64,000 nt of DNA from Candidatus Levyibacteriota bacterium (GCA_018062815.1 JAGORM010000001.1:87029-151028), one strand, 5' to 3'; positions 3,069 through 59,856 are shown, counted from the first letter of the stretch. Numbers and translations are program-made. Notes: generated from the sequence alone by a model not told the origin.

Positions 3069-4491
3069 ATGTTATCCTGGGGAATAAGGGTTCAGAAGAT
3101 TTAATTTTATCACTGCCGAATTGTTCAAGTATTTGATTTGCAGTATTTGGCAGAAACGGTTTAAGGTTAAAGCCTATATGCAGAATTTTTTGTATTAAGG
3201 TGTCTAAGGTTTTGGTAAGCTCCTCATCTTTTTGTTCCCAAGGTTTTTTTTCGTTTATGAATTTATCTGTACTTCCAATAATATCCCATATATATTCAAT
3301 CCCTAAATTTAATTCATAGGTATCAAGGAAATGTGTTATTTCTTTATCAAAAGATGAAGGGATAGTCCCGCCTTTTTTATTATTTTTTTCTGCTAATCTT
3401 GCTACTCTTGCCACTAGATTACCAAGACCATTTGCAAGATCTGAGTTATATACTTCTCTAAATCTATTTTCTGTAAAATCCCCATCAGAATAGGTAGGGA
3501 TTTGAGAGAGCATATAATATCTAAAAGGTTCTAGCCCATATTTCTCAGTCATCTCGAATGGGTCAATCACGTTTCCGAGAGTTTTTGACATTTTTTGTCC
3601 TCCCGATTGCACAAAACCATGAATAAGGATTGATTTTGGTATCTCAAGACCTGCTGATAACAACATGGCTGGCCAGTATACAGTATGAAATCTATTTATA
3701 TCCTTTCCGATTACGTGTAGATTAGCCGGCCACCATTTTTTAAATTCTTTTTCGTCAATCCCATACCCAATTCCGGTTATGTAGATTGCAAGCGCATCAA
3801 ACCAAACATACATTACCTGATCTGGATCGTTTGGAACAGGTACTCCTATATTTTGTGCTCTTTTTTTTGATCGGGAAATGCTAAAATCTTCAAGACCATT
3901 TTTTATAAATGATACTATCTCATTTTTTCTAACGCTAGGAATAATGCGAAGCGTGTCTGATTCAATAAGTTTCAAGAGTGTATTTTGATAATTTGTTAGT
4001 TTAAAAAAATAATTATCTTCTTTTATCTTTTCCGGGATAGTTTGATGATCTTGGCATTTTCCATTTATTAATTCTTTCTCTGTTTTAAAGCTTTCACATC
4101 CAATGCAATAAAGTCCGCTATAGGATTTTTTGTAGATGTCTCCTTTTTCCAGACACAAACTCCACAGTTTTGATACCCCAGGAAAATGATGATTTTTATT
4201 TGATCCTCTCTCAAATATATCCAGATGTATACCTAGCTTTTCATATGAGGTTTTAAAAATTAGCGAATTTTTGTCTAGAAAATCCTGTATTGGGATCCCC
4301 TCTTTTTCAGCCGCTTGAACATTTTTTAACCCGTTTTCATCAGCGCCTGATAAAAGAAGCGTATCAAAGCCTAATAGCTTGTGATAGTTTCTTATTGTAT
4401 CAGCCTGAAAATATTCAAGAGCGTGTCCAATATGAGGTTTTCCATTAACATATGGGATAGCGGTTGTGAGGTAAAACGTATTTTTATTCAT
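3067..4491 (-). CDS. metG: Methionyl-tRNA synthetase, minimal form without C-terminal tRNA-binding domain
   Basis: HIGH motif (PYVNGKPHIGHAL), KMSKS motif (KMSKTLGN), zinc knuckle CIGCESF; 474 aa. Confidence 0.93.
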   Translation of the reverse strand: MNKNTFYLTTAIPYVNGKPHIGHALEYFQADTIRNYHKLLGFDTLLLSGADENGLKNVQAAEKEGIPIQDFLDKNSLIFKTSYEKLGIHLDIFERGSNKNHHFPGVSKLWSLCLEKGDIYKKSYSGLYCIGCESFKTEKELINGKCQDHQTIPEKIKEDNYFFKLTNYQNTLLKLIESDTLRIIPSVRKNEIVSFIKNGLEDFSISRSKKRAQNIGVPVPNDPDQVMYVWFDALAIYITGIGYGIDEKEFKKWWPANLHVIGKDINRFHTVYWPAMLLSAGLEIPKSILIHGFVQSGGQKMSKTLGNVIDPFEMTEKYGLEPFRYYMLSQIPTYSDGDFTENRFREVYNSDLANGLGNLVARVARLAEKNNKKGGTIPSSFDKEITHFLDTYELNLGIEYIWDIIGSTDKFINEKKPWEQKDEELTKTLDTLIQKILHIGFNLKPFLPNTANQILEQFGSDKIKSSEPLFPRIT

Positions 4492-6293: not shown

Positions 6294-6323
6294 ATTATAC
6301 CATGCACACCCTTTTTATTGGAA
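6294..6323 (-). promoter_or_regulatory. Sigma70-like promoter for the pyrE-pyrF-metG operon (TTCCAA-18-TGgTATAAT), probably leaderless
   Basis: On the minus strand, an extended -10 TGGTATAAT ends 9 nt before the pyrE ATG. No SD is present. Confidence 0.4.
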
Positions 6324-6353
6324 AAGTATTTACGGTATGTTAGAATCAAGTTA

Positions 6354-13813: not shown

Positions 13814-13849
13814 TGACAGACCTTAGCAGTCATGTTATATTATTGCTAA
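13814..13849 (+). promoter_or_regulatory. hrcA promoter (TTGACA-16-TATATT) with overlapping CIRCE-like inverted repeat TTAGCAGTC-N9-TATTGCTAA
   Basis: -35 at 13814-13819. The IR TTAGCA...TGCTAA (13823-13849) matches the outer arms of the CIRCE consensus TTAGCACTC-N9-GAGTGCTAA and overlaps the -10. Confidence 0.6.
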
Positions 13850-13906: not shown

Positions 13907-14626
13907 ATGTATGATTTAACGCCACGGCAGGTTGATATCTTAAAGCTAATAGTAAAAGAGTATATTGATAATGCTGAAGCGGTAGGATCAGAAACTCTTG
14001 AAAAAAAACATGATGTAGGGATATCCCCTGCAACTATTAGAAATGAAATGGCAGCTATGGTGAAGTTGGGATACTTGTCAAAACCTCATACATCAGCAGG
14101 AAGAATTCCAACCACAAAAGCCTTAAAGCTTTATATAAATGAGCTGATGCGCGAAAAAGAACTATCTGTAGCTGATGAGGTTCAGGCAAAAGAGCATGTA
14201 TGGGACCTGCGCGCCCAAGAAGAAAAGTTTTTAAGGGGAGTAACCCGGGATCTTGCGCAAAAGACAAGAACGCTTGCGGTTACAACTACAGATGATGGAG
14301 ACATATATTATTCTGGGTACGCGAACATTCTTGAGATGCCTGAGTTCTATGATATTGATATAGCAAAAAATTTATTGTCAATTTTAGATAGCGCTGTGTG
14401 TTTCGACTTGATTACTAAAAGAATTGAAAATGAACTAGGAGTTTTTTTAGGAGATGAACTTGGAAGCGACATGTACAAGCCATATAGCTTTGTTTTTTCA
14501 AGGTTTCATACTAAAAATATAAACGGGTCAATTGGGGTAGTTGGTCCTGCAAGAATTAGGTATGAATTAGTAATACCCACAGTAAGATTTTTTGGCGGTC
14601 TAATTGGCGAAGTAGCTGAATGGTAA
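13907..14626 (+). CDS. hrcA: Heat-inducible transcription repressor HrcA (short form)
   Basis: N-terminal winged-helix (LTPRQVDILKLIVKEYIDNAEAVGSETL...SPATIRNEMAAMVKLGYLSKPHTSAGRIPT). Position upstream of grpE-dnaK. Confidence 0.85.
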   Translation: MYDLTPRQVDILKLIVKEYIDNAEAVGSETLEKKHDVGISPATIRNEMAAMVKLGYLSKPHTSAGRIPTTKALKLYINELMREKELSVADEVQAKEHVWDLRAQEEKFLRGVTRDLAQKTRTLAVTTTDDGDIYYSGYANILEMPEFYDIDIAKNLLSILDSAVCFDLITKRIENELGVFLGDELGSDMYKPYSFVFSRFHTKNINGSIGVVGPARIRYELVIPTVRFFGGLIGEVAEW

Positions 14627-15241: not shown

Positions 15242-17176
15242 ATGTCTAAAATAATAGGAATAGATTTAGGAACTACAAATTCATGCGTTGCAGTAATGGA
15301 AGGTGGCGCGCCAAAAGTAATATTTTCTGCAGAAGGAAGAAATGTGACACCATCTGTTGTAGATCCGGTAGACCGAGTAGTTGGTGATGTAGCAAAGAGG
15401 CAGATGGTTTTAAAACCGAAACGCATCATTTTTTCTATAAAACGTCTTATGGGTCGTCGCTTTAATGATCCGACAGTTCAACAGGACATAAAGCTCCTTC
15501 CTTATACTGTAAAAGCAGGAAAGGATGGTCTTGCGGTTGTGGAAGTTGATGGGAAGTCATATACACCTCAGGAGATTTCAGCAATGATTTTACAAAAGAT
15601 AAAGTCTGATGCTGAGTCGTATTTGGGAGATAAAATCACACAGGCAGTTATTACAGTTCCTGCGTATTTTGACGATGCGCAACGACAAGCAACAAAACAA
15701 GCGGGTGAGATTGCAGGGTTAGAAGTTCTACGTATTGTAAACGAGCCTACGGCTGCTGCGCTTGCCTACGGATTGGACAAAAAACACGCACATACAATTG
15801 CCGTATATGACATGGGCGGCGGTACGTTTGACGTATCCATATTAGAGTTAGGAGAAGGTGTTTACGAAGTAAAATCTACAAACGGAGATACACATTTGGG
15901 TGGAGATGACTTTGATCAAAAAATTATAGATTATATTGCGGATGAATTTAAGAAAGATAATAATATTGATCTAAGAAGTGACCCTCAGGCATTACAAAGA
16001 CTTAAAGAAGCAGCTGAGAAAGCAAAGATTGAATTGTCATCATCATCTGAAGCCGAAATTAATCAACCGTTCATAACTCAAGGGCCAAATGGACCACTTC
16101 ATCTAACAATGAAGTTAACTCGTGCGAAGCTTGAGAGTATAGTAGGAGATTTAATTACAAAGTCATTTAAGTCTGTTGAATCAGCACTTAAAGATGCAGG
16201 GCTAAAAGCATCTGATGTAAATGAGATTATTATGGTTGGGGGCATGACAAGAATGCCAAAGGTCGTAGAAGAGGTAACAAAATTCTTTGGAAAAGAACCT
16301 AATAAGAGTGTAAACCCGGATGAAGTAGTGGCGATTGGTGCAGCTGTTCAGGCAGGAGTATTGGGAGGAGACGTGAAAGATGTACTACTTTTAGATGTAA
16401 CTCCTTTAACTCTTGGAATTGAAACATTAGGCGGAGTTGCAACACCGCTTATTAATAGAAATTCAACAATTCCAACCAAAAAGTCTCAGGTATTTTCAAC
16501 TGCAGCCGACAATCAGACTCAGGTAGAGATTCATGTTGTTCAGGGCGAGCGTCCTATGGCTGTGGACAATAAATCTCTTGGAAGATTTGTTTTGGATGGA
16601 ATCCCGCCAGCACCTCGTGGTGTTCCTCAGGTTGAAGTTGCATTTGATATTGATGCTTCAGGAATTCTTTCGGTTTCAGCAAAAGATAACGCAACAGGGA
16701 AAACACAAAGCATTAAGATTACCGGAGGCACAGGTCTTTCAAAAGATGAAGTTGAAAGGATGACAAAAGAAGCGGAAATTCATGCTGAAGAAGATGAGAA
16801 GAAAAAGGAATTGATTGAAGTAAGAAATCGAGCAGATGGGCTTATCTTTACCGCAGAAAAATCATTAAAAGATCTGGGGGAAAAGGTTCCTGCCGACTTA
16901 AAATCGGCTGTAGAGGGAAAAATTTCTGCGCTGAAAGAAGCACTAAAAACTGAAGATAAAGCAGACATGGAAGCAAAGACGCAAGAACTGTCTGACCACT
17001 TGTCAAAAATAGGCGAGACTATGCAGAATCAGGCAGGACCGTCTGGTGAACAATCAGGTAACGGAGAGCCTGGGGCGGAACAGGAAGGTAAAGATGCATC
17101 ATCACAAACGGATCAAAGTGGATCAGAATCCTCTACAAATAAAGATGAAGCGGTAGAAGGAGAAGTAGTAAATTAA
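15242..17176 (+). CDS. dnaK: Molecular chaperone DnaK (Hsp70)
   Basis: [16 protein letters not shown], and full NBD+SBD architecture; 644 aa. Confidence 0.97.
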
Positions 17177-20497: not shown

Positions 20498-23161
20498 ATG
20501 TTCGGAAATTTATTTAACACAGCAAAACAAGATGACCAGATAGTGACACACAATACAAGGGTTGATATTGATAACCCTATGCTAGGGGGAGCAAATATTT
20601 CCATTAACTCATCAGGTAATCCAAGTCAGATACAACCCTCCCCATCAATTTCCCAGAACCCTGTAGGGATGGACCCACAAAAAAGAGAAAACATGTTTGC
20701 TTTATCCCGCCTTGATCCACGATCACTTCAAGTTCTTCATCATGCTCAGGAGGAAACCAAGCGATTGTCTCAGGAGTTTATTAATCCGGAGCAACTACTT
20801 TTAGGACTTTTTTATGATGGGGATGTTTTTCGCATATTAGAACAATTTAATGTAGATGTTGCAAAATTAACCCATGAGATTCAAGCAAAAGAAAGGCCTG
20901 GTACTTTTTCGGGACAGCCCACTATGGGGCCAAGCGTTGTTAAGATATTTGATGAGGCATATTCAAACGCAAAAAAAAGAGGTGCTTCATTTGTCTCCCC
21001 TGAGGATATAATGGTTGCGCTTTTTTCTGAAACATCAACCTCTGAATTCTTAAAAACATTTGGTGTGCAGAGAGATAAATTAGAGGAAAAATTGTCTAAA
21101 TCTACAGGCTATGTTTCATCTTCAAGAAAAAGCGTGTTAGAAAAATACGGTATTGACCTGACTCAGGAAGCAAAGGACGGCAAGTTAGATCCTATTGCCG
21201 GCCGCGAGCGGGAAACAGAGCGTTTGATTCACATACTATTAAGAAGAACCAAGAATAATCCGATAATTATTGGCGAGGCGGGAGTGGGAAAGACAGCAAT
21301 CGTTGAGTCGCTTGCTCTTAAAATCGCAGAAGGGTCGGTTCCTCACGACCTTTTAAATAAGCGAATTATTCAACTGGAGCTTGCTTCACTGGTTGCAGGA
21401 GCTTCACATAGGGGTGAGTTTGAGGAAAGATTGCAGGACGTGATTAAGGAAACACAAGCATCAAATGGCCAAGTAATATTATTCATAGATGAAATTCATA
21501 CTCTTATCGGGACAGGGGACACGCAAGGAGCTATGGATGCTTCAAATATAATAAAACCATATTTAGCAAGAGGGCAGTTGCAACTTATCGGAACCACAAC
21601 TACTGCTGAGTACCGTAAATATTTTGAAAAAGATAAGGCCTTTGAAAGACGTTTCCAAGCTGTATTAGTTGACGAGCCGACTGAAGAAGTTGCCGAGCAG
21701 ATGCTTGAAGTATTAAAACCCAAATATGAAAAATTTCATTCAGTTGAGATTACTCCAGAGGCGATTAAGGCGGCTGTTCATCTTTCAAAAAAGTATATAG
21801 GAGAAAGATACTTACCCGATAAGGCTGTTGACTTATTAGATGAAGCGGCAGCAGAGGTAAAATTGCAGCATACAGAAGGAAAAAGACAGGACAATAAGGT
21901 CATAAAATCAGACATAGAAAAAGTCGTGTCCGCATGGACTGGAATTCCTATAACTCGTCTCACTGAGGATGAATCTCAAAAGTTAATTCACCTGGAGGAT
22001 ATCATTCACAAACGATTAATTGATCAAGAAGAGGCAGTAGCTGCAGTATCTGAGGCGGTAAGACGTGGGAGGATTGGTCTTGCAAGTGCAAACAGGCCAA
22101 TAGCATCATTTATCTTTTTGGGTCCAACTGGAGTTGGAAAAACAGAGTTGGCAAAAACTCTCGCGGAGATTTTATTTGGAAGGGATGATCTTATGATTAG
22201 GCTTGATATGTCAGAATATATGGAAAAGCATGAGGTTGCAAAACTTATTGGAGCTCCTCCAGGATACGTTGGGTACGAAGAAGGTGGACAGCTAACAGAA
22301 GCGGTACGTGCAAAACCGTATTCAATAGTGCTCTTAGATGAAATAGAAAAAGCTCATCCAGATGTATTTAATATTTTACTTCAGCTACTTGAAGATGGAA
22401 GACTTACTGACAACAAAGGGAATACGATATCTTTTAAGAATACTATTATTATCGCAACGTCAAATATAGGATCTTCACTTATTCAACAAACTCTTTTAAC
22501 TCAAAGCTCAAACGCAACGCAGGTGGTTTCTCCTGCTGAAGAAGCAAAAAGATTTTCATCTCTATCAAAAACCCTGATGGATGAGTTAAGAAAATTTTTT
22601 AAACCAGAGTTGTTAAATCGATTTGATGAAATAGTAATGTTTAAACCATTGCGTCAGCAAGATATGATGCAGATTGCAAAAATAGGCATATCTAAGACAC
22701 AAAAATTATTAGCGGAGCAAGAGATAAACCTAACTATAACGGAGAAAGCATTAGGTGTATTATCAAAAGAAGGATACGATCCTGTATACGGAGCGCGTCC
22801 GTTAAGAAGACTTATACAGTCAGCAATTGAAAATCCAATTGCGATACTACTTATTAATAAAACTTTTACCGTGCACGATACTGTTCAAATTGATTATGAT
22901 GATGCAAAGGCTCAGTTCACATTTACAAAGTTGACACAGCCAGTGGACAAACAGGAACAGCAGCCCATACCCGCGTCCTCAGCACAAGTTGCAACCCAAC
23001 AATCTAATATGGCAGCAGCTGGTTCGGTTGAAGCAGCAAATGGGAATGGAATTTTATCTGATATCGCAAAGGAACATTCGGCTGCTATCCCTCCTCCCGT
23101 ACAATCTGCGCCCCCAATGTCATCTGTTGACTCAAGTGGTACTATAATGCAACCTGCCTAA
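20498..23161 (+). CDS. ClpB-like Hsp100 AAA+ ATPase lacking the M-domain, with N-terminal extension and Q/A/P-rich C-terminal tail
   Basis: Two Clp_N repeats. D1 Walker A GEAGVGKTA and Walker B ILFIDEIH. D2 GPTGVGKTELAKTLAE, Walker B VLLDEIEKAH. ClpB-like D2 segment TSNIGSSLIQQ with no ClpP-binding IG[FL] loop. Only about 28 aa separate ...DLLDEAAAEVKLQ and VVSAWTGIP, where ClpB carries a roughly 120-aa coiled-coil M-domain. Confidence 0.8.
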   Translation: MFGNLFNTAKQDDQIVTHNTRVDIDNPMLGGANISINSSGNPSQIQPSPSISQNPVGMDPQKRENMFALSRLDPRSLQVLHHAQEETKRLSQEFINPEQLLLGLFYDGDVFRILEQFNVDVAKLTHEIQAKERPGTFSGQPTMGPSVVKIFDEAYSNAKKRGASFVSPEDIMVALFSETSTSEFLKTFGVQRDKLEEKLSKSTGYVSSSRKSVLEKYGIDLTQEAKDGKLDPIAGRERETERLIHILLRRTKNNPIIIGEAGVGKTAIVESLALKIAEGSVPHDLLNKRIIQLELASLVAGASHRGEFEERLQDVIKETQASNGQVILFIDEIHTLIGTGDTQGAMDASNIIKPYLARGQLQLIGTTTTAEYRKYFEKDKAFERRFQAVLVDEPTEEVAEQMLEVLKPKYEKFHSVEITPEAIKAAVHLSKKYIGERYLPDKAVDLLDEAAAEVKLQHTEGKRQDNKVIKSDIEKVVSAWTGIPITRLTEDESQKLIHLEDIIHKRLIDQEEAVAAVSEAVRRGRIGLASANRPIASFIFLGPTGVGKTELAKTLAEILFGRDDLMIRLDMSEYMEKHEVAKLIGAPPGYVGYEEGGQLTEAVRAKPYSIVLLDEIEKAHPDVFNILLQLLEDGRLTDNKGNTISFKNTIIIATSNIGSSLIQQTLLTQSSNATQVVSPAEEAKRFSSLSKTLMDELRKFFKPELLNRFDEIVMFKPLRQQDMMQIAKIGISKTQKLLAEQEINLTITEKALGVLSKEGYDPVYGARPLRRLIQSAIENPIAILLINKTFTVHDTVQIDYDDAKAQFTFTKLTQPVDKQEQQPIPASSAQVATQQSNMAAAGSVEAANGNGILSDIAKEHSAAIPPPVQSAPPMSSVDSSGTIMQPA

Positions 23162-23185: not shown

Positions 23186-24940
23186 ATGCAAAGAATATTT
23201 CATGTGTTACGGCGTATTGATACCCGTTTTTTTCTCTTACCCTTTTTATTATTTGCATTTGGAGCAATCGGATATTTAGGTATCCAGGGGGTTTTTTTTC
23301 AAAAAGATAAAATATTTCCACAGGGTGTACGGTATATTCCGGATCAAATAATAGTCAAATATAAAATTGGACAATCTCCAGATGAGCTTCAGAATGCAGG
23401 GAAAACAGAAGATAGAAAGGTACTGTTGTCTGCACTATCAAATGTTGGAGTTTCTTCTCAAAAGAGGTTGTACGTGTCAGAAAATTCTTTGCTTGAAAAT
23501 TATTATGTATTAACTCTCAAGTCTGGTTTTACAGTCCCAGATGCATATAGCAATATTAAAAAGATACCTGAAATAGAAAGTGCTGCCCCTGATTATATAT
23601 TAAAAATACAGGAAGCCCCAAATGATCCATATTACCCATCTATGTGGAATCTTTCTAAAATTGAGGCAGAAATGGTGTGGAATAGAGTGCATGTAGATGG
23701 GAAGGTTATAGTTGCAGTTATAGATACAGGAGTTGACTATCAACACGAGGACTTACAAGACGTGGTAATAAAAGGTAAAAATTTTATTTCTAATGATAAT
23801 AATCCGATGGATGATCAGGGGCATGGGACTCATGTTGCAGGAATAGCTGCTGCAGTTACAGATAATGGTATAGGAATAAGTGGGGTCTCCTGGGGGGCTA
23901 AAATTTTGGCTATTAAGGCGTGTGATAAAAATGGAGACTGTAGTACGGCAAATGTTTCAAGAGCTATTCAGTATGCCGTAGACAACAATGCAAAAATTAT
24001 TAATGTCAGCATTGCAGGGAGCGGTTCATGTAACGGAACGTATACTGATGTATTAAGATATGCATTAAGAAAAGGTGCAATGGTTGTTGTTGCTGCTGGA
24101 AACGGAAATAATGGAGACGGAATAGGTGTGGATGTAGAATCTCAAATACCTGCATCATGTGAAGGCTCTATCGCAGTGGGTTCAATTACAGCAGAAGGTA
24201 AAAGATCAAATTTTTCTAATTTTGGTTCTAAGGTTGAGATTTCCGCTCCCGGCGGCGCTGGACCTTGTACAATTGAGAGTTGTATTATTTCTACTAGCAT
24301 TAACAACTCATACTCACTTCGTTCTGGGACTTCTATGGCCGCCCCTCAGGTAAGTGCTGTTGCTGCGCTCCTTTTGTCCAATGATAGAAATCTTTCTATG
24401 TCAAAAATTCGTTCCTGTATTCTAAATGGTGGGAACAGTCTTCAAACAGATAAAAATATCGGGCTTCTTTTGAATGCTCAAAATTCATTGAGTATATGTA
24501 CTAAAACTGAACCTACCCCCACCCCAAAAAATATTAATAATATGTCATCTATTGCAGGTACAGTGTTTATTGACACTAATAAAAATAACAAATTTGATTC
24601 AACAGAAAAAACATTATCATCTGTCCAGATCATTTTATCTGGCTTAACTAATGATAGTGTAATAAGTAATTCAAAAGGAAAATATTTATTTTTGAGATTA
24701 CCAAGTGGTCAACACACAATATCTGCGACATTAAACGGGAAAAGCGTAATTACACCTATTAATATTTCTGTTGTATCAAACAATGCTGCTCAGCTTAATA
24801 TACCTGTACCCTCCGAAAAGGTAATTATTAAGCCAACACCTTCTGTTAGTGAACAAAAAACCTCTTCTCAATGCTTTGTCGATCCAGACTGCTTGAAAAG
24901 CAAGAAGTCAGTTCAAATATGTTCTTTTCAATGCGAATGA
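23186..24940 (+). CDS. Membrane-anchored subtilisin-like serine protease (peptidase S8) with C-terminal Cna-B/SdrD-B-like domain and Cys-rich tail
   Basis: N-terminal TM helix. Catalytic triad motifs VAVIDTGVD, GHGTHVAG and GTSMAAP. TPTP linker, then GTVFIDTNKNNKFD...KGKYLF...GQHTISAT resembling B-type repeats. C-terminal CFVDPDC...CSFQC. Confidence 0.85.
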   Translation: MQRIFHVLRRIDTRFFLLPFLLFAFGAIGYLGIQGVFFQKDKIFPQGVRYIPDQIIVKYKIGQSPDELQNAGKTEDRKVLLSALSNVGVSSQKRLYVSENSLLENYYVLTLKSGFTVPDAYSNIKKIPEIESAAPDYILKIQEAPNDPYYPSMWNLSKIEAEMVWNRVHVDGKVIVAVIDTGVDYQHEDLQDVVIKGKNFISNDNNPMDDQGHGTHVAGIAAAVTDNGIGISGVSWGAKILAIKACDKNGDCSTANVSRAIQYAVDNNAKIINVSIAGSGSCNGTYTDVLRYALRKGAMVVVAAGNGNNGDGIGVDVESQIPASCEGSIAVGSITAEGKRSNFSNFGSKVEISAPGGAGPCTIESCIISTSINNSYSLRSGTSMAAPQVSAVAALLLSNDRNLSMSKIRSCILNGGNSLQTDKNIGLLLNAQNSLSICTKTEPTPTPKNINNMSSIAGTVFIDTNKNNKFDSTEKTLSSVQIILSGLTNDSVISNSKGKYLFLRLPSGQHTISATLNGKSVITPINISVVSNNAAQLNIPVPSEKVIIKPTPSVSEQKTSSQCFVDPDCLKSKKSVQICSFQCE

Positions 24941-26256: not shown

Positions 26257-28626
26257 ATGAAAAATTTTGACATGTTTAATTTATACGTTTTTTATAATAA
26301 TGTGTTCGTAAAGGCATTTCGGTTTTTTGCACTTTTGTTTTTGACAATAGTCTTGTTTTATGTAAGAAATGACCTATTTCTTTTTAGAATAATTCTTAGT
26401 TTCTATGTGTTATATCTTGTAAATGAAATTTTTGTCCATTTTAAAATTAATAAATCAAGTCCGCTTAATACAGTAAGCATTGATAGCAATCTGCCTCAGT
26501 TGGCTATATTGTTTAACGTAAGATATTTGCTTAGCATAAAAAATAATAATTTCTTTATTGAAAAATTGATAAAACAGAAAGACGTTGCATTTTTTATTGC
26601 AAAAATTGATGGGTTTGATTCTTCCTCAGCTCAAGTTAATGTTATAGGTTTGTTAAATAGAGCACGTTCTTTAGCGCAAATCTGCAAAGGAACTTACATT
26701 ACGGCAGCTGATATATTTGCAGCCTATCTTCTTTTGACAGAAAGCGAAAGCCACCTTTTGGAGCAGAAAGAACTAACGGAAAACGATATATTAGAAATAC
26801 TTTTATGGTGTAGAGAAAAGTACAATCTAGATAAAGTAAATTTTATTAATATGCATTTTACAGGAGCAGGCGTTTTTGACTTTTTTATATATGGTTGGAA
26901 CACTCAATTAAAAGAATTCTCGTTTGATTTAACATACAGTTTAATCGGAAAAAATACATCTCCTATTGTAGGAAGGGAAAAAGAATTTTCTCAGATGGTG
27001 GGAATACTTTCAAAAAATTCTACAAACAACTTATTAATAATAGGCGAACCTGGAGTTGGAAAATCTTCACTGGTTTCGTTTTTGGCTCTGGAGGCATACA
27101 GAAATACAAGGTTTATTTTGCACAACACAGTTGTATATGAACTTCTTGTTGATAGATTGCTTGCGGGGGTGTCTGATGCAGGAGAACTGGAGACGCGTCT
27201 AGGGTTATTGCTTTCTGAAATAGAACATATTGGAAATGCTGTACTTTTTATTCAAAACATGGAAAATATTTTTGGGGCAGGCGGATTTGGTTTTGATATG
27301 TCAGGCATATTATTTTCTTATTTAAAAAATGGAAAGGTGCAAATAATAGGTACAACAACTCCATCTTTTTATAAATCAGTTATTGAAAAGAAGTCTAGTA
27401 TTATGAGCTTATTCGAGTTGTTAAGATTATATGAGCCTGATCGTGATGTTTCATTGCGGATGATTGCAGCCCATGTTGATAATATTGAACGGGAGTACAA
27501 TGTAAGCATATCATATAAGGCAATTCATGAGACATTAGAATTGGCTTTCTCATTTCTCCCAGAAACATTCCTTCCGGGTAAAGCAATACTTCTTCTTCAT
27601 GATGTTTCATCCAGGGTAAGACTTGCGGGAAGAAATCGGGTCGAGAAAGAGGACGTAATACAGTTTGTTCAAGAGAAGACAAACATTTTACTTGAGAGAC
27701 CAGATATAGATGAGAAAAAAGTTTTATTATCCCTTGAGCAAGAATTACATAAGAGAATAATAGGACAAGATGAGGCAGTAATTGCAATTTCAAAGGCAAT
27801 AAGAAGGCTAAGAAGTGGTTTTTCTCAGAATAAACGTCCTATTTCCACCTTTCTTTTTCTAGGTCCTACTGGAGTAGGGAAAACAGAAACTGCAAAGGCT
27901 TTATCACAAATTTACTTTGGGGATGAGGCAAATATGATAAGGCTTGATATGAGTGAATACCAAACGCAAAATGAGGTAGATAGATTATTAGGCGGTGTTC
28001 CCGGGGGAATTGAAATAGAAAATTCACTGCCTGAACAGGTTAGACTTCATCCCTTTTCGCTCATATTGTTAGATGAATTTGAGAAGGCACATCCACACAT
28101 ATTAGATATATTTCTGCAAATTTTTGAGGATGCTCGGCTTACTGATAATAGCGGAAGAACGGTTTCATTTAAAAATACCATAATTATTGCAACAAGCAAC
28201 GCTGGGTCAGAATCAATTCGTGAGATGATGCATGAGAAGAAAGATCCTGCTTCATTAAAGAATATTTTAGTAGAGGCTCTACTTAGAGATGGAGTGTTTA
28301 AGCCTGAACTACTAAATAGATTTGATGATGTGATTATTTTTACACCACTCTCTTCTATTGAGGCAGCTGAAATTGCGAAACTTATCCTTGCATTATCATT
28401 AAAGTCTCTTGAGGACGATCAAATTTACATTACATTTGACGATAAGGTTAAAAATAAAATAGTGCAAGAGTCGTTTGATGAAGAGGCGGGCGCTCGGAAT
28501 ATGAGAAGGTATGTGGGATCGACAATTGAAGATTATTTATCAAGGCTTATACTGGAAGATAAATTGAAAAAGGGAGCACATGCTACTTTGACAGTCGACG
28601 AGAACAACAATTTTGTATTACAATAA
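26257..28626 (+). CDS. Membrane-anchored Hsp100/Clp-like AAA+ ATPase paralog: N-terminal TM helices, degenerate D1 (Walker B DE replaced by QN), intact D2, no M-domain
   Basis: 2 N-terminal TM helices (FRFFALLFLTIVLFYV, LFRIILSFYVLYLV) and a degenerate Clp_N-like segment. D1 Walker A GEPGVGKSS but Walker B AVLFIQNMENIF (27253-27258 = CAA AAC). D2 GPTGVGKTETAKALSQ and ILLDEFEKAH, and TSNAGSE. No ClpP IGF loop. Confidence 0.75.
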   Translation: MKNFDMFNLYVFYNNVFVKAFRFFALLFLTIVLFYVRNDLFLFRIILSFYVLYLVNEIFVHFKINKSSPLNTVSIDSNLPQLAILFNVRYLLSIKNNNFFIEKLIKQKDVAFFIAKIDGFDSSSAQVNVIGLLNRARSLAQICKGTYITAADIFAAYLLLTESESHLLEQKELTENDILEILLWCREKYNLDKVNFINMHFTGAGVFDFFIYGWNTQLKEFSFDLTYSLIGKNTSPIVGREKEFSQMVGILSKNSTNNLLIIGEPGVGKSSLVSFLALEAYRNTRFILHNTVVYELLVDRLLAGVSDAGELETRLGLLLSEIEHIGNAVLFIQNMENIFGAGGFGFDMSGILFSYLKNGKVQIIGTTTPSFYKSVIEKKSSIMSLFELLRLYEPDRDVSLRMIAAHVDNIEREYNVSISYKAIHETLELAFSFLPETFLPGKAILLLHDVSSRVRLAGRNRVEKEDVIQFVQEKTNILLERPDIDEKKVLLSLEQELHKRIIGQDEAVIAISKAIRRLRSGFSQNKRPISTFLFLGPTGVGKTETAKALSQIYFGDEANMIRLDMSEYQTQNEVDRLLGGVPGGIEIENSLPEQVRLHPFSLILLDEFEKAHPHILDIFLQIFEDARLTDNSGRTVSFKNTIIIATSNAGSESIREMMHEKKDPASLKNILVEALLRDGVFKPELLNRFDDVIIFTPLSSIEAAEIAKLILALSLKSLEDDQIYITFDDKVKNKIVQESFDEEAGARNMRRYVGSTIEDYLSRLILEDKLKKGAHATLTVDENNNFVLQ

Positions 28627-52823: not shown

Positions 52824-53915
52824 ATGGATGATTTCAATAAAATAAAAAGTGAATTAGCACAACTCATTTCAGAGAACTCAGGTATTGGTATTATCGTATC
52901 CAGCAATCAGACGCTAGACGTACTTGCAGCTGGAATATCCCTACATCTAATTCTTCAAGATTCTGGAAAAAACTCTCAAATAGCTTCTCAGAAAAACCCC
53001 ACGGTAGAACACTCATTTTTAGTCGGAATAGATCAGCTAAAAAATAGCTTTTCTGGTTTGACTCGCACGCTTACAGTTTCTTTTCCCTATCATGATGGTG
53101 ATATAGAGAAAGTTTCATATAATATAGAGGGTGATAGGCTTAACGTGAACTTATTTGCGGAAGAACAAGGCATAGGTTTTACTGAGAAGGATATAAAATA
53201 CTTTAGACAAGGGTCATCACCAAATTTAGTAATTACAGTCGGTGTACTTCAGGCATCAGAATTGCAGGATTTAGTTGGACCGGAAACAAAAATTATCAAC
53301 ATTGATAACTCAGCAAATAATTCCATGTTTGGGCAAGTGAATATTGTTGATACGTCGTACTCCTCACTGTCTGAATTAGTAGGAAAAATAGCAAGTGAAT
53401 TACAATTCGTTATTGAATTTGACGTAGCTCAAAATTTGTTAGACGGCATAGCTTATGCAACAAATAATTTCATGTCTCCTAAAACATCCCCATTAGCTTT
53501 TGAAATGGCTGGGTTTTTAATGCAAAAAGGGGCAATCCGAAAGAATATGAAGGAAACGCTAACACATACAGATGAGTCCCTAGAAATGTTAGGTAAAAAA
53601 ACAGATAACATAATGAGGAAAGCTCCGAGAAATGAAGGCTTTAGTAAGTCAACACGCGCAATTTCTCAAGATAGACAGATTGATGAGATGCAGAATATGG
53701 CAAAGAAAGAATTTGGGAATGAAGAGGTTTCAAGTCAAATAAACGCTTCAAAGACGCAAACAGTGCCATCCTCAAGTTATCCGAGTGTTCCTCAGCCTGA
53801 GCCTTTTGCCCTGGATGATAATTCATCTGTGTTAGAAAATATACCATCAGAAGATGAAGCTCCCTCTGATTGGTTTACCCCAAAGGTTTTTAAGTCAACT
53901 AAAGGGAATAACTAA
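52824..53915 (+). CDS. NrnA-like DHH/DHHA1-fold protein with degenerate catalytic motifs (putative pseudo-phosphoesterase)
   Basis: N-terminal pattern ...SGIGIIVSSNQTLDVLAAGISLHLIL... parallels NrnA ...IVLTTHVNPDGDALGS.LAL..L. but lacks the DxD Asp residues. The DHH position reads GVL. No GGGH in the C-terminal half. Position between infB and rpsO. Confidence 0.35.
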   Translation: MDDFNKIKSELAQLISENSGIGIIVSSNQTLDVLAAGISLHLILQDSGKNSQIASQKNPTVEHSFLVGIDQLKNSFSGLTRTLTVSFPYHDGDIEKVSYNIEGDRLNVNLFAEEQGIGFTEKDIKYFRQGSSPNLVITVGVLQASELQDLVGPETKIINIDNSANNSMFGQVNIVDTSYSSLSELVGKIASELQFVIEFDVAQNLLDGIAYATNNFMSPKTSPLAFEMAGFLMQKGAIRKNMKETLTHTDESLEMLGKKTDNIMRKAPRNEGFSKSTRAISQDRQIDEMQNMAKKEFGNEEVSSQINASKTQTVPSSSYPSVPQPEPFALDDNSSVLENIPSEDEAPSDWFTPKVFKSTKGNN

Positions 53916-54420: not shown

Positions 54421-56766
54421 ATGAAAAAATTTAAAAAATCCTTTGATATAAACGGTAGAACTGTTACCTTAGAAACTGGACTTCTTGCGGAGCAGACGAC
54501 AGCGGCTGTTTTAGGACGTATGGGTGACACCATGGTTTTAACTACAGTTGTAATGGGTGCAAATGATACTACTTTGGATTATTTTCCCTTAAGCGTTGAA
54601 TATGTAGAGAGACTTTATGCAGGTGGACGTATAAAAGGAAGCCGTTGGGTAAAACGTGAAGGTCGTCCTTCTGATGATGCAATTCTTACCGCACGTCTTA
54701 TTGACCGTTCAATCCGCCCTTTATTTCCTAAGGAGTTAAAAAAAGATGTTCAGGTTGTAATAACAGTTTTATCAGTTGACGGTGAGCATGATCCTGATGT
54801 TCTCTCAGCAATTACCACTTCAGCAGCTCTTTCTGTTTCCAAGATTCCCTGGAACGGACCGATTGGTACATCCCGAGTAGGTTTGATTCGTCAAAATGGA
54901 AATGAGGAATTAGTTATAAATCCACACGTTACCGAATACCCATTTGCAGATATGGACTTGATTGTTTCTTCCCTTAATAACCGGTCTATTATGATAGAGG
55001 CTGGAGCAAAGCAGGTTGAAGAGAAATACTTTATTGATGGTATTAAGAAGGCAAAAGAGGCAAACGCTAAAATAATAGACTTTATAAATGAAATGGTTGT
55101 GGAGATAGGTGACAAGAAGGTAGAACTTTCAAAAGACGAAAAATTGGAAGAAGTAAAGCTACTTGTAGAAAAATCATATAAAGACAAAATGCATAAGCTT
55201 ATTGCAGACGGAGTTACTCGTGAAGTAGGAGGAGAATTAGGAAAAATCGCTGAAGAAATTTATGAAGCTGAAAAGGCAAAGGCTGATAAAAATGGGGAAG
55301 CAATGGAGCTTGATAAAAAAAAGATTGCAACGGGGGTAGATTATGTATTTAAAAAAACAGTTCGTGAGATGATAGTGCGCGAAGGAAAACGTCCAGATGG
55401 ACGCGGACTTAAAGAGATTAGAAAAATTTCAGCTGAAGTTGGTATTTTGCCAAGAACACATGGTTCAGCAGTTTTCACAAGAGGAGAAACTCAAGTCTTG
55501 TCTGTTGCAACATTAGGATCGTCATCTATGGAGCAACTACTTGAAGGTCCTGAAGGTGAAGAAAAGAAGCGTTATATGCATCATTACTCATTCCCACCCT
55601 ACTCTGTGGGGGAAACGGGACGTATGGGAAGTCCTAATAGACGTGAGATTGGACACGGGGCCCTTGCAGAACGTGCATTAGAGGCGGTTTTGCCTGAATC
55701 ACATGTATTTCCTTATGCTATTCGTGTTGTATCGGAGGTTATGAGCTCAAATGGCTCTACTTCTCAAGCTTCTGTGTGTGGTTCTACATTAGCGCTTATG
55801 GATGCAGGGGTGCCTTTGCTTGCTCCAGTTGGGGGAATTGCAATTGGATTAATGACGCTAGACGATAAGTCCATAGTTCTAACAGATATTATCGGTCTTG
55901 AGGATTTTGCAGGGGATATGGATTTTAAAGTTGCTGGAACTACAAAAGGAATTACTGCGATTCAAATGGATACAAAAATTGCTGGTCTTACAGATGAGGT
56001 AGTTGAGGAGACGCTTGAAGACGCTAAGAACGCAAGAACTTCTGTTCTTGAGTCAATGATGAGCGTAATGCCTGAAGCAAGAAAAGACGTATCTAAGTAT
56101 GCACCAAAAATTAAAACTATTAAAATTAATCCAGAAAAAATCGGAGAAGTTATAGGTTCAGGAGGAAAAACTATACGAAATATTTCAGCGTCAACTGGTG
56201 CGACAGTAGATGTTGAAGAAGATGGAACAGTGTCGGTTGCAGCAGTAGACGAAGAGGCAGTTGAAAAAGCGGCACATTGGATAGATCTTATAACAAGAGA
56301 ACTTACGCCGGGAGAAGTTTTTGATGGAACGGTAAAAAGAGTAGTTGGATTTGGTGCATTTGTGGAGATTGTTCCAGGGAAAGAAGGTCTTGTGCATGTT
56401 TCTGAAATGTCTTCTGAATATGTAGCAGATCCAAATGATGTGGTAAAGCTTGGGCAGGAAGTAAAAGTGAGAGTGAAAGAAGTTGATGATCACGGAAGAA
56501 TTAACCTTTCAATGCTTTTTGGAGAAGCTGCTGAAAAAGCTAAAGAAGCAGGTAAAAAAGATGATGGGCGAGGTGGAGATAGGGGTCCAAGAGATGACAA
56601 GCCTAGGTTTGAGAATCGTGAAAGACGTAGCTTTGGACATGGTGGAGCCGGAAGGCGTTCGGGTGGAAGCAGTAGAGGTCCACGCGCTGATTCATCTTCA
56701 CAAGGTGGAGGAATCAGAAATGAATTTGGTAGCACATACTCTGGTACGCGTCGTCCACGAAGATAA
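54421..56766 (+). CDS. pnp: Polynucleotide phosphorylase with RGG/arginine-rich C-terminal extension
   Basis: Two RNase PH domains, KH (GxxG) and S1 domains, then a roughly 90-aa tail (56503-56766) rich in R/G/D/S (…GRGGDRGPRDD…RRSFGHGGAGRRSGGSSRGPR…). Confidence 0.95.
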   Translation: MKKFKKSFDINGRTVTLETGLLAEQTTAAVLGRMGDTMVLTTVVMGANDTTLDYFPLSVEYVERLYAGGRIKGSRWVKREGRPSDDAILTARLIDRSIRPLFPKELKKDVQVVITVLSVDGEHDPDVLSAITTSAALSVSKIPWNGPIGTSRVGLIRQNGNEELVINPHVTEYPFADMDLIVSSLNNRSIMIEAGAKQVEEKYFIDGIKKAKEANAKIIDFINEMVVEIGDKKVELSKDEKLEEVKLLVEKSYKDKMHKLIADGVTREVGGELGKIAEEIYEAEKAKADKNGEAMELDKKKIATGVDYVFKKTVREMIVREGKRPDGRGLKEIRKISAEVGILPRTHGSAVFTRGETQVLSVATLGSSSMEQLLEGPEGEEKKRYMHHYSFPPYSVGETGRMGSPNRREIGHGALAERALEAVLPESHVFPYAIRVVSEVMSSNGSTSQASVCGSTLALMDAGVPLLAPVGGIAIGLMTLDDKSIVLTDIIGLEDFAGDMDFKVAGTTKGITAIQMDTKIAGLTDEVVEETLEDAKNARTSVLESMMSVMPEARKDVSKYAPKIKTIKINPEKIGEVIGSGGKTIRNISASTGATVDVEEDGTVSVAAVDEEAVEKAAHWIDLITRELTPGEVFDGTVKRVVGFGAFVEIVPGKEGLVHVSEMSSEYVADPNDVVKLGQEVKVRVKEVDDHGRINLSMLFGEAAEKAKEAGKKDDGRGGDRGPRDDKPRFENRERRSFGHGGAGRRSGGSSRGPRADSSSQGGGIRNEFGSTYSGTRRPRR

Positions 56767-56912
56767 AGTTTAATTATTATTAAAGTAGTCACTCAAGTAT
56801 ATTTGAAAATTATTCAGTCTATCTAAATATCCCAAGGTAAAAGCATAGGTTATCCACATCTAAGATTTTTGCGTTCCATGACAATACATTCTATTCTTGC
56901 TATACTAATTCT

Positions 56913-58079
56913 ATGAATGATAAAGGATATCCGCTTAATATGGGTGGATTAAATACAAACCCCTCAAGTGTCACTCTTCCAACACAAGATTCAATTCCGC
57001 CACAAAATAATTTAAACTCATCGGACAGCTTTCCTCAGATAACAAAACTTGAGCAATTGGTTTTAAAAGCTTCACTTCCCGTGGATTTACATGAAAAAGC
57101 TACGGGAATGATTCAGCGCTTAAAGCTTATTAGGCATGAATCAAGTTTTTTTATGGAGCTTGACCAGATAGGGCGATACATAGAATGGATAACTGCGCTT
57201 CCTTGGAATTCTGAAACAAAAGATATTTTAGATTTGAATCATGCAAGACAGGTTTTGGAAAAAAATCATTATGGTTTGCTTCAGGTGAAAGAACAGATAC
57301 TTCAATATTTATCTGTGATGATTATTAAATCGTCTCAGGGGGGGACAAAGGATCATTTTTCAAGAGCACCAATAATTTCTCTTGTGGGGCTTGCAGGTGT
57401 AGGAAAAACTACCATTGCGTACTCTATCGCGGAAGCACTTGGAAGGCGCATCGAGCGTATTCCATTTGGTGGTATGGGAGGTGCTGCTATCCTTAGGGGT
57501 CAATCTAGGTCTTCACCTGATGCTGAGCCTGGAGCGGTAATTAAGGCATTACGTCGTTCGGGAACAAATAATCCAGTCATTCTATTAGATGAGATAGATA
57601 GAGTATCGGAGGCTGCAAGAGGAGACATAATGGGTGTGTTAGTTGAATTATTAGATCCGGAGCAAAATAGAGCATTTACAGATCACTATATTGATTACCC
57701 TTTTAATCTTGGAAATGTTTTATTTGTCGCAACTAGTAACAACACCAAAGATATCTCTACAGCAGTTTTAGATAGATTAGAGGTTATTCAAATGCCTTCA
57801 TATGCGGACCTGGAAAAGATTACAATTGCAAAGAATTATTTACTTCCTAAAATTCTTGCAGAATCTGGATTTGTAGCAAATTCGGTATTAGTTTCGGATG
57901 CTGTTTGGGCAGAAATTGTACGACCTCTTGGGTATGATCCGGGAATTCGCTCACTTGCACGTGCGGTTCAGGATATGGTAAGAAAAGTTGCACTTTTTCA
58001 ATTAGATGGAAAATTACCAAAAGGGCAGCCGTTTAGTTTAACAGATCAGAATTTACGTCAATTTATACCCCAATGGTAG
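56913..58079 (+). CDS. Standalone Lon-like AAA+ ATPase module (no S16 protease domain, no full N-domain)
   Basis: Aligns by eye with the Lon segment from ...WNxxxK...HYGLxxVKxxILxYL through Walker A GLAGVGKT, Walker B ILLDEID, ...VLVELLDPEQNRAFTDHY..., ...LDRLEVIQMPSY..., sensor-2 GIRSLARAV. The ORF ends about 60 aa later, followed by a 118-nt gap and rnj. Confidence 0.7.
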   Translation: MNDKGYPLNMGGLNTNPSSVTLPTQDSIPPQNNLNSSDSFPQITKLEQLVLKASLPVDLHEKATGMIQRLKLIRHESSFFMELDQIGRYIEWITALPWNSETKDILDLNHARQVLEKNHYGLLQVKEQILQYLSVMIIKSSQGGTKDHFSRAPIISLVGLAGVGKTTIAYSIAEALGRRIERIPFGGMGGAAILRGQSRSSPDAEPGAVIKALRRSGTNNPVILLDEIDRVSEAARGDIMGVLVELLDPEQNRAFTDHYIDYPFNLGNVLFVATSNNTKDISTAVLDRLEVIQMPSYADLEKITIAKNYLLPKILAESGFVANSVLVSDAVWAEIVRPLGYDPGIRSLARAVQDMVRKVALFQLDGKLPKGQPFSLTDQNLRQFIPQW

Positions 58080-58197: not shown

Positions 58198-59856
58198 ATG
58201 AATGAAATAACATTTATATCAATAGGTGGAATTGGCGATGTCACAAAAAATATGTACGCATATATATATGGTGACGAAATTTTATTGGTCGACTGTGGAA
58301 TTGGGTTTGCGGATAGTAATCTTCCCGGGGTTGATCTTTTGATTCCGGATATTTCCTACATTAAAGAAGCCATTAAGAGCGGAAAAAAAATTGTAGGGCT
58401 TCTGCTTTCTCATGGACACGAGGATCATATTGGAGCTCTTCCCTTTATATTACCCCAACTTCCACAATTCCCCGTATATGGTTCAACGCTAACGGCAGCA
58501 CTTGCAAATGACAAGCTTTCAGAATTCGGGATTGATAGGAGAGTTACTGAAATACAATTTTCTGATCCGGCATTAAAACTTGGCGTTTTTTCGGCATCGT
58601 TTATAAGAATGACACATTCGATAATTGATGCATCTAATATCTTAATAGGTACACCTATTGGTAATTTTTATCACGGTTCAGATTTTAAATTTGATTTTAC
58701 TCCTGTTGATGGAAATTTGTCAGAAGTAAACAAGATAGCTTCAGCAGGAGACTCCGGTATTTTATGTCTTATGTCAGACTGTTTAGGTGCAGAAAAGCAT
58801 GGTCACTCTAGGTCTGAGCAGAAGATAAAGGATTCTTTTGAGCTTGCATTCAGGGAAACGAAAGGGAAAGTTTTTGTGACCACATATTCCTCAAATATAT
58901 CCCGACTCAATCAAGCCATTGAGGTAGCGATTTCTCAAGGAAGAAAGGTATGTTTTATGGGAAGATCACTGCTTAAGACTCGTGATGTAGGTAGATCTCT
59001 TAATTATATGAAGTTTCCAAAAAAATTTGAAATACGTCCTCATGAGGTTGCAAAGTATAAGCCTTCAGAAGTTATGATACTGGTAGCCGGTTCTCAAGCT
59101 CAGGAGAGTTCAGCGCTATCAAGGATTACAAATAATGACGACAGAGATTTAAGGATAGAAAAAGGGGATACAGTTATATTTTCAGCAGATCCAATTCCCG
59201 GCAACGAAGAAAATATTTATGCGTTGGTAGATAACCTTTCGCGGCGTGGAGCTCGTGTAATATATTCTGAAATAACAGACGAATTTCATGTATCGGGGCA
59301 TGGATCAGAAAACGATTTGAAGCTATTAATTTCCCTTACACATCCTCGGTATTTTGTTCCAATTGGTGGTACATTTCGACAAATGGCAGCTTACAGAGAA
59401 ATAGTAAAAGCTATGGGGTACCGTGATAATAGTGCGTTTTTAATTGATTCAGGGCAGGAGTTACATTTTTCAAAAGAAGGGGTTAGGTTAGGACGAAAAG
59501 TATCAAATGCAACCATTTTTGTGGATCAAATGACAGGTGAAGAAGTAGAAAACTATATAGTGATAGATAGGGTAAGAATTGCAAAGGAAGGAATAATTAT
59601 AATTATGGTTGAATTGGAGGGGTCAACCGGACAAATCATATCAAACCCTGAAATACTAACAAAGGGATTTGTGTATGAAAAAAAAGAAGAATTTGCTAAA
59701 ACCTTGGGAGACGCACTAGCTCATAGATTTGCAAACAAGAAAGATCCTGTTTCGTCAGTGGGATATTACAAAAAGGTTATTGAAAAAGCTGCTGAAGAGA
59801 TACTCTATAGAGAAGGGCGCTCACCCTTAGTTGTCCCCGTAATTATAGAGGTGTAA
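58198..59856 (+). CDS. rnj: Ribonuclease J (metallo-beta-lactamase/beta-CASP)
   Basis: HxHxDH motif LLLSHGHEDHIGALP, beta-CASP and C-terminal domain; 552 aa. Confidence 0.92.
   Translation: MNEITFISIGGIGDVTKNMYAYIYGDEILLVDCGIGFADSNLPGVDLLIPDISYIKEAIKSGKKIVGLLLSHGHEDHIGALPFILPQLPQFPVYGSTLTAALANDKLSEFGIDRRVTEIQFSDPALKLGVFSASFIRMTHSIIDASNILIGTPIGNFYHGSDFKFDFTPVDGNLSEVNKIASAGDSGILCLMSDCLGAEKHGHSRSEQKIKDSFELAFRETKGKVFVTTYSSNISRLNQAIEVAISQGRKVCFMGRSLLKTRDVGRSLNYMKFPKKFEIRPHEVAKYKPSEVMILVAGSQAQESSALSRITNNDDRDLRIEKGDTVIFSADPIPGNEENIYALVDNLSRRGARVIYSEITDEFHVSGHGSENDLKLLISLTHPRYFVPIGGTFRQMAAYREIVKAMGYRDNSAFLIDSGQELHFSKEGVRLGRKVSNATIFVDQMTGEEVENYIVIDRVRIAKEGIIIIMVELEGSTGQIISNPEILTKGFVYEKKEEFAKTLGDALAHRFANKKDPVSSVGYYKKVIEKAAEEILYREGRSPLVVPVIIEV

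Follow-up and report, generated by a model that had tools for sequence, protein, structure and literature searches.

We identified a stand-alone Lon-type ATPase gene without a protease domain in a 64,000-nucleotide stretch of DNA from Candidatus Levyibacteriota bacterium (GCA_018062815.1 JAGORM010000001.1:87029-151028), hereafter the window. The gene is complete, lies at 56913..58079 on the plus strand, runs from an ATG start to a TAG stop and encodes 388 amino acids plus the stop. Its product is a LonA-type AAA+ module made up of a three-helix bundle, an alpha/beta domain and a lid. It is a member of a monophyletic family that has neither the protease domain nor the N-domain of Lon and is conserved in Microgenomates, WWE3 and Dojkabacteria within the ultra-small bacteria of the Patescibacteria, or Candidate Phyla Radiation (CPR). 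Strong purifying selection acts on this gene; it is no truncated lon. With a confidence a little above even, we read the protein as a Lon-derived ATPase that stands alone, hydrolyses ATP, is probably hexameric, does not thread its substrates and acts on its clients in a remodelling, chaperone-like or regulatory role.

The domain content of the protein is restricted to the ATPase part of Lon. Pfam found an AAA domain at residues 157-293 (E 8e-16) and a weak Lon_lid at 317-367, and nothing else; neither LON_substr_bdg nor Lon_C, the domain that carries the C-terminal Ser-Lys dyad of the S16 protease, gave a match in the 388-aa protein. The NCBIfam lon equivalog TIGR00763 was matched over profile positions 255-562 of 795, with 305 bits against a cutoff of 608. 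Among solved structures, the best matches were LonA proteins in their ATPase part alone (Meiothermus Lon residues 234-562, E 5e-74), and the Lon homology begins at about Lon residue 234. An earlier interpretation made from the DNA without database searches (the sequence-only reading) had claimed that the open reading frame (ORF) stops right after the alpha-helical lid and that its N-terminus lacks the Lon substrate-recognition domain, and had proposed a hidden Markov model (HMM) scan in which AAA and Lon lid would be present and Lon_C absent. The Pfam and NCBIfam results agree with it on each of these counts.

Structure prediction gave the same picture. An AlphaFold2 monomer model built on 77 family sequences (mean predicted local distance difference test score, pLDDT, 83) shows a disordered N-terminal tail, a three-helix bundle at residues 41-95, an AAA+ alpha/beta domain and a lid. 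Foldseek matched this model to the AAA+ modules of LONP1 and of the Yersinia, Meiothermus, Thermus and E. coli Lons, with E-values from 1e-24 to 1e-28 and template modelling (TM) scores of 0.73-0.77 against Lon ATPase modules. The Lon-type combination of three-helix bundle and lid is therefore present in what appears to be a small, soluble protein. Its N-terminal tail (residues 1-37; 56913..57023) gave no match to the LonA substrate-binding domain. This tail is rich in N, S, P and Q, of low complexity and predicted to be disordered (pLDDT <50); it is gapped in the family alignment (A1), differing in length and sequence among relatives. The bundle that follows, with helices 41-52, 57-72 and 79-95 (57033..57197), is homologous to the LonA bundle preceding the AAA+ module, and its region includes the family-invariant residues P56, M66, R69, L70, F79, E82, D84, W92, P97 and W98. 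The large alpha/beta subdomain spans about residues 108-294 (57234..57794), with HYGL at 119-122, and the small alpha, Lon-type lid spans residues 299-388 (57807..58076) and ends in ...FIPQW, its final aromatic residue being typical of those family members that are encoded between pnp and rnj.

The short architecture is shared by a large family. Searching 5.8 billion proteins gave more than 120 clusters, 347-477 aa long and 60-90% identical, that carry AAA and Lon_lid only; the names given to them at source are 'AAA family ATPase' or 'ATP-dependent Lon protease', from Candidatus Levybacteria, Woesebacteria and Patescibacteria. An exhaustive HMMER search of 50%-identity representatives added more short members, one of them from Dojkabacteria, with identity reaching as low as 38%. 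The gene occurs in at least 80 species-representative genomes (from a scan giving 80 loci), and the lineages that have it comprise Levy-, Ames-, Shapiro-, Roizman-, Woese-, Davies- and Gottesmanbacteria, WWE3 and Dojkabacteria. The same truncated form, for which the sequence-only reading had suggested a search in related genomes, is thus widespread. In a simple neighbour-joining tree of 185 Lon AAA+ modules, drawn without support values, the protease-less short proteins all fall into one clade of 27 tips, apart from canonical and tandem Lons. The family HMM separates them likewise: among the 45 of 152 library proteins listed, members score 347-475 bits and other Lon modules 279 bits or less. 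The stop codon falls at the same point of the lid across loci, the exceptions being short C-terminal variations or extensions (P0160 and P0168 among the members concerned) and a few contig-truncated copies. Because the trimmed form is conserved across a large CPR group, we regard it as a working protein and not a broken lon. We found no curated model covering the family in Pfam or NCBIfam, and literature searches did not yield a description of a protease-less Lon ATPase family. Some members carry long extensions without Pfam match (P0140/P0272, 669/703 aa; P0132, 486 aa; P0168, 548 aa); the N-terminal ones reach about 430 aa, and the C-terminal extension of P0168, about 210 aa, is not S16.

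The nucleotide-handling residues are retained throughout. The window protein carries Walker A (GLAGVGKTT, residues 159-167; 57387..57413), Walker B (VILLDEID, residues 222-229; 57576..57599), LDPEQN at residues 247-252, the sensor-1 segment TSNN (residues 274-277; 57732..57743), LDRLEVI with the arginine finger R288 (residues 286-292; 57768..57788) and, in the lid, sensor 2 (GIRSL, residues 344-348). This is the classical motif set of the AAA+ HCLR clade, comprising Walker A and B, the sensor-1 Asn, a trans arginine finger and the sensor-2 Arg. Alignment A2, of 24 sequences, shows G164, K165, T166, D226, E227, N276, D287, R288 and R346 to be invariant. Across 93 loci, the family patterns are Walker A G[LIV]xGxGKT[TS], Walker B, the sensor-1 Asn, a DR[LMIV]E arginine finger and the sensor-2 Arg, all retained except in a contig-truncated copy (L070) and a sensor-2 variant (L085). 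All residues needed for ATP binding and for hydrolysis across the subunit interface thus appear to be kept, and since every one of them is retained, the protein most likely assembles as a Lon-like hexameric ring and hydrolyses ATP. The conserved arginine finger acts in trans, which itself argues for an oligomeric ring, as in Lon.

The pore loops follow a different course. In MtaLonA, the substrate is contacted during translocation by Tyr397 of pore loop 1 and Trp431 of pore loop 2, both needed for degradation (PMC8503904). Neither aromatic is found in the window protein. In the pore-loop-1 region (LRGQSRSSPDAEPG, residues 194-207; 57492..57533), S201 occupies the canonical Tyr position, and in the pore-loop-2 region (VSEAARGDIMG, residues 231-241; 57603..57635), A235 aligns with Trp431. 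All seven canonical reference Lons have RGHRRTY[IV]GA[ML]PG in pore loop 1, where the family instead has RGxS[RK]-xxx-[DE][AS]EPG: the flanks R195, G196, E205, P206 and G207 are conserved, and the three-residue centre is hypervariable (LFP, SSP, FSP, VHP, AFA, TSP, LHL and others). The column equivalent to Tyr397 has an entropy of 3.36 bits, against a 90th percentile of 3.12 for the protein, and is aromatic in only 30 of 88 distinct family sequences. At the Trp431 equivalent, five of the seven reference Lons are aromatic ([DS][FVY]RGDP), whereas the family pore loop 2 reads xARADIMG, usually with Ala, Ser or Gly at this position. The high entropy of the Tyr column beside invariant ATPase residues indicates that the hydrolysis machinery is strictly constrained and the polypeptide-gripping residues are not. 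The view in the sequence-only reading that the ORF reproduces the Lon ATPase module almost motif for motif therefore needs qualification: HYGL, Walker A/B, LDPEQN, LDRLEVI and sensor 2 are there, but both pore loops are not Lon-like.

No S16 protease domain was found near the gene. An S16 HMM built from 58 canonical Lon P-domains was run, at E<=10, on the 64 kb window and on 92 related loci with about 10 kb on either side of each (about 1.45 Mb; 1.51 Mb in total). It gave zero matches in the window and zero in the related loci. As a control, the same HMM matched 112 of 272 proteins, with zero short family members among the matches. A six-frame motif scan of the window did not find an S16 motif, and when the P-domain of E. 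coli Lon served as a tblastn probe against the window, no S16 was returned (best E 0.62). One weak tblastn match at 4290..3805 on the minus strand (E 9.7) looked like RadA and was rejected, as Pfam shows the ORF to be methionyl-tRNA synthetase. The sequence-only reading had placed no S16 domain in the 118 nt that follow the ORF and had named a separate S16 domain, downstream or encoded elsewhere and forming a split Lon, as evidence that would overturn it; the HMM and six-frame results are negative for the 118 nt and the rest of the window, those of the HMM also for the related loci, and rnj follows at 58198.

Canonical Lon was likewise not seen in any related locus examined. The source names of 20 canonical or tandem Lon representatives gave no CPR assignment, being Mesoplasma, Mycoplasmopsis, Victivallales, Clostridiales or blank, and literature searches returned nothing relevant on canonical Lon or stand-alone S16 in Microgenomates genomes. 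One candidate for a Microgenomates canonical Lon, P0310, was rejected as phage-encoded. This 718-aa protein (L093:10001-12157) is a complete Lon ATPase-protease without N-domain on a 51 kb phage-like contig that carries portal, terminase and lysozyme genes, and its gene comes directly after AAA (MoxR-like) and VWA genes.

The gene recurs in two main genomic contexts. In the window, rpsO and then pnp (54421-56766) lie upstream, and 118 nt after the stop comes rnj, which encodes RNase J beta-CASP and C-terminal domains. The gene, as X, sits in 66 of 93 loci inside the block nusA-infB-(DHH-like)-rpsO-pnp-X-rnj-ftsK-rodZ-like. Relatives thus hold the short gene in this block, and full-length lon, which the sequence-only reading had considered as a sign of recent truncation, was found at this locus in none of them. 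The pnp-X-rnj placement spans lineages down to about 42% identity. At 14 of the 93 loci the gene is instead head-to-head with groES-groEL (about 13) or lies 3-5 kb upstream of groESL, and the remaining 13 are short contigs or other contexts. Dojkabacteria copies lie 3-9 kb from groESL, and two loci counted as other (L089 and L092) have groEL 8-9 kb upstream. Both contexts look like mainly inherited gene order within sublineages. Proteostasis is mildly hinted at by the groESL pairing, and RNA decay, more weakly, by the position between pnp and rnj.

Taken together, these results lead us to the following proposal. As in other Lon-type AAA+ modules, the protein would form a hexameric ring and hydrolyse ATP. 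With the pore-loop aromatics lost, it has probably abandoned the role of a processive unfoldase feeding a degradation chamber, which is the weakest step of the proposal; we suggest this from the relaxed state of the residues that thread a substrate and from the lack of any peptidase fused to the module or close to the gene. ATP-driven remodelling, or a chaperone-like or regulatory action on client molecules, would remain, and the variable disordered N-terminal tail may provide interactions. Several considerations weigh against this proposal. About one third of family members keep a pore-loop-1 aromatic, and threading may persist in some of them. An unlinked peptidase partner may exist beyond the window and the roughly 10 kb flanks of the loci. 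The chaperone-like part draws on ancestry and on a gene neighbourhood that is possibly just inherited. Finally, the Lon N-domain, missing here, mediates substrate recognition and, according to a 2026 preprint, the chaperone-like activity of LONP1.

ATPase and peptidase reside on separate subunits as a rule in the related Clp and Hsl systems, and a split Lon could be organised in the same way, with the ATPase serving a separately encoded S16 or other self-compartmentalised peptidase and docking on it through a C-terminal aromatic tail (...P[QAST][WY]). The conserved aromatic residue at the end of pnp/rnj-type members fits this arrangement, as does the distant member L012, where a pair of M16 peptidases lies upstream and the gene immediately downstream encodes an M23 peptidase. 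These peptidase neighbours occur in one lineage only, however, and the terminal aromatic is missing from groESL-type and Dojkabacteria-type members; our own reading of the structure alignments puts it at the boundary between lid and linker in canonical Lon. Given also that no S16 lies in the window or within about 10 kb of the 92 related loci scanned and that the threading residues are not conserved, we consider a split Lon unlikely.

An accessory role in RNA decay, in which the ATPase would serve PNPase and RNase J, for instance by assembling or remodelling a degradosome-like complex, is suggested by the position between pnp and rnj in most loci, by the DHH-family gene, rpsO and pnp upstream, and by the short distances to rnj. 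In 35 of 61 loci the stop and the rnj start are no more than 180 nt apart, and in 13 of 61 no more than 30 nt. In 26 of the 61 loci, however, at least one unrelated gene separates rnj from the Lon-ATPase gene, and we downgraded the degradosome link for this reason. The commonest insert, in 20 loci, is a gene of about 200 aa with GEAxG...FVGPAG motifs that resembles, by motifs alone, a family-4 uracil-DNA glycosylase (L027, L029, L034, L039, L040, L046, L059, L063, L065, L067-L069, L072, L073 and others). Moreover, nusA-infB-x-rpsO-pnp...rnj-ftsK-rodZ is conserved as a whole, as inherited gene order looks, other family subgroups sit elsewhere beside groESL, and the pore-loop changes bring acidic rather than basic residues. 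The gene also has a promoter-like site of its own (56878..56906), recognised by consensus match alone: ATGACA, a 17 nt spacer and TATACT with a TG extension (TGcTATACT). The site ends 6 nt before the ATG, with no Shine-Dalgarno visible, which suggests a separate, possibly leaderless transcript. We therefore assign a dedicated function in RNA decay only a small probability.

A third possibility is an accessory ring or mixed oligomer, in which the module stacks on or co-assembles with canonical Lon, if any, or with ClpB/ClpC-like proteins. Natural fusions that place two or three tandem Lon-type AAA+ modules before one S16 domain show that extra Lon ATPase tiers are tolerated, and the window encodes two ClpB/ClpC-like proteins. 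Set against this, the tandem modules group apart from the stand-alone family in the neighbour-joining tree and canonical Lon is in none of the loci, so we judge co-assembly very unlikely. These fusions are large proteins with two to three tandem Lon-type AAA+ and lid modules followed by one S16 (P0121, P0122, P0125, P0126, P0131, P0133, P0139, P0141 and others); in P0121, a 1113-aa protein of Candidatus Dependentiae, AAA domains start near 126, 408 and 689, and Lon_C covers 904-1111. Our literature search did not find a description of multi-tier Lon proteases.

A decaying lon, or an assembly or frameshift artefact that removed the protease domain, has nothing in its favour beyond the truncated architecture itself and is refuted by the conservation data, namely a lid stop position that recurs across loci and more than 120 clusters at 38-90% identity, invariant catalytic residues, a monophyletic family and no S16 remnant in any downstream frame; the sequence-only reading, which had favoured a trimmed Lon-derived ATPase over a decaying gene, was right on this point.

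Several further observations concern the surroundings of the gene and its relatives. Two ClpB/ClpC-like double-AAA+ proteins (20498-23161 and 26257-28626; 887 and 789 aa) flank a subtilase (S8) gene (23186-24940) in the window; the first AAA module of the second protein matches poorly. Membership of the Lon-type ATPase in an anti-phage defence system was rejected, since PADLOC gave only a weak generic AAA+ match (DolB, 28.6 bits) and the neighbours are core housekeeping genes. Immediately upstream of the gene, the PNPase ends in a tail of about 90 aa after its S1 domain (56560-56766), which is Arg/Gly-rich (...GGDRGPRDDKPRFENRERRSFGHGGAGRRSGGSSRGPR...TRRPRR) and resembles RGG-type RNA-binding sequences. 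Between infB and rpsO lies a 363-aa ORF without Pfam match (52824-53915) that is conserved in most related loci; in L001 the counterpart matches DHH weakly, and the ORF may encode an NrnA/RecJ-like phosphoesterase.

Heat-shock operators were also considered. No operator resembling CIRCE (controlling inverted repeat of chaperone expression) lies upstream of the Lon-ATPase gene, and operator hits in groESL-type loci were rejected because they fall within coding sequence. Elsewhere in the window, a CIRCE-like inverted repeat (TTAGCAGTCATGTTATATTATTGCTAA, 13823-13849) stands upstream of an ORF at 13907 that precedes dnaK (15242-17176), and the Dojkabacteria locus L006 has a similar variant, TTAGCAGTC-N9-TACTGCTAA, ahead of groES (6298-6324). 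These inverted repeats suggest a CPR variant of the HrcA operator.

Two points concern the records themselves. The assembly CAZBWW01 is the only metagenome-assembled genome (MAG) to carry both types of member, one of groESL type (L042) and one of pnp/rnj type with WWE3-like signatures (L079); they may be true paralogues, or the bin may be chimeric. In addition, the records of L013, L015, L016, L018, L019, L063 and others bear titles such as 'uncultured Gammaproteobacteria', 'Pseudomonadales' or 'Candidatus Methanoperedens'. Such titles of Third Party Annotation (TPA) MAGs look like placeholder or wrong taxonomy, the records carrying a CPR-specific gene and synteny.

Domain-loss derivatives are common. 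This large and old clade is a natural separation-of-function variant, in which the Lon motor is apparently active and the protease, N-domain and pore-loop aromatics are gone. It could reveal what a lone Lon ATPase ring does and bears on the debated chaperone-like activity of Lon. The sequence-only reading had overlooked the pore-loop divergence, the large monophyletic family and the two recurring genomic contexts. Annotation is affected as well: the same proteins are called 'ATP-dependent Lon protease' at the Joint Genome Institute (JGI) and 'AAA family ATPase' elsewhere, and reconstructions of CPR metabolism and proteostasis that take up the former label may therefore wrongly credit these organisms with Lon proteolysis. 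A bolder and rather doubtful reading is that Lon was turned, in Microgenomates, WWE3 and Dojkabacteria, into a non-threading, non-degrading housekeeping ATPase with a new cellular job. Candidates for such a job, within the same tentative reading, would be an ATP-driven organiser of RNA decay by PNPase and RNase J, a GroESL co-factor, or a motor that docks on a non-S16 peptidase through its conserved C-terminal aromatic. If this were true, the 'Lon protease' calls in these genomes would be wrong, and the lineages may lack Lon proteolysis altogether.

Among known systems, the closest is LonA (E. coli Lon, MtaLonA, human LONP1; MEROPS S16A), which shares the three-helix bundle, the AAA+ alpha/beta domain and the lid at 33-43% identity, together with the HYGL, LDPEQN and DRLE motifs and the Walker and sensor residues. 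LonA differs in having an N-domain and an S16 Ser-Lys domain, both absent from the stand-alone family, in its pore-loop aromatics, which the family does not conserve, and in Walker A, where LonA has GPPG and the family GL(V/A/Q)G. ClpX and HslU, also of the HCLR clade, have a single AAA+ module and no peptidase domain on the chain. They have aromatic pore loops and docking elements (the IGF loop, the C-terminal tail), and their genes usually lie beside that of the partner; the stand-alone family, in contrast, has degenerate pore loops, no universal docking element and no adjacent partner gene. In the tandem-AAA+ Lon-like proteins, the extra AAA+ and lid modules have a complete Lon ATPase-protease joined to them in cis and fall outside the stand-alone clade.

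The textbook Lon combines ATPase and protease on one chain, and a 2022 review describes both domains as present in all Lons (PMC9569914); the stand-alone clade breaks this definition. LONP1 offers a precedent for a Lon ATPase acting without proteolysis, but in a full-length Lon: its chaperone-like action against aggregation requires ATPase and not protease activity (PMC8368198). LonC (MtaLonC) is a Lon offshoot that, according to two reports (PMC3391209, PMC13069640), has retained its protease and lost its ATPase activity, with a chaperone function proposed. The stand-alone family is the reverse of LonC, keeping the ATPase motifs and having no protease, so that each is a Lon offshoot minus one of the two catalytic activities.

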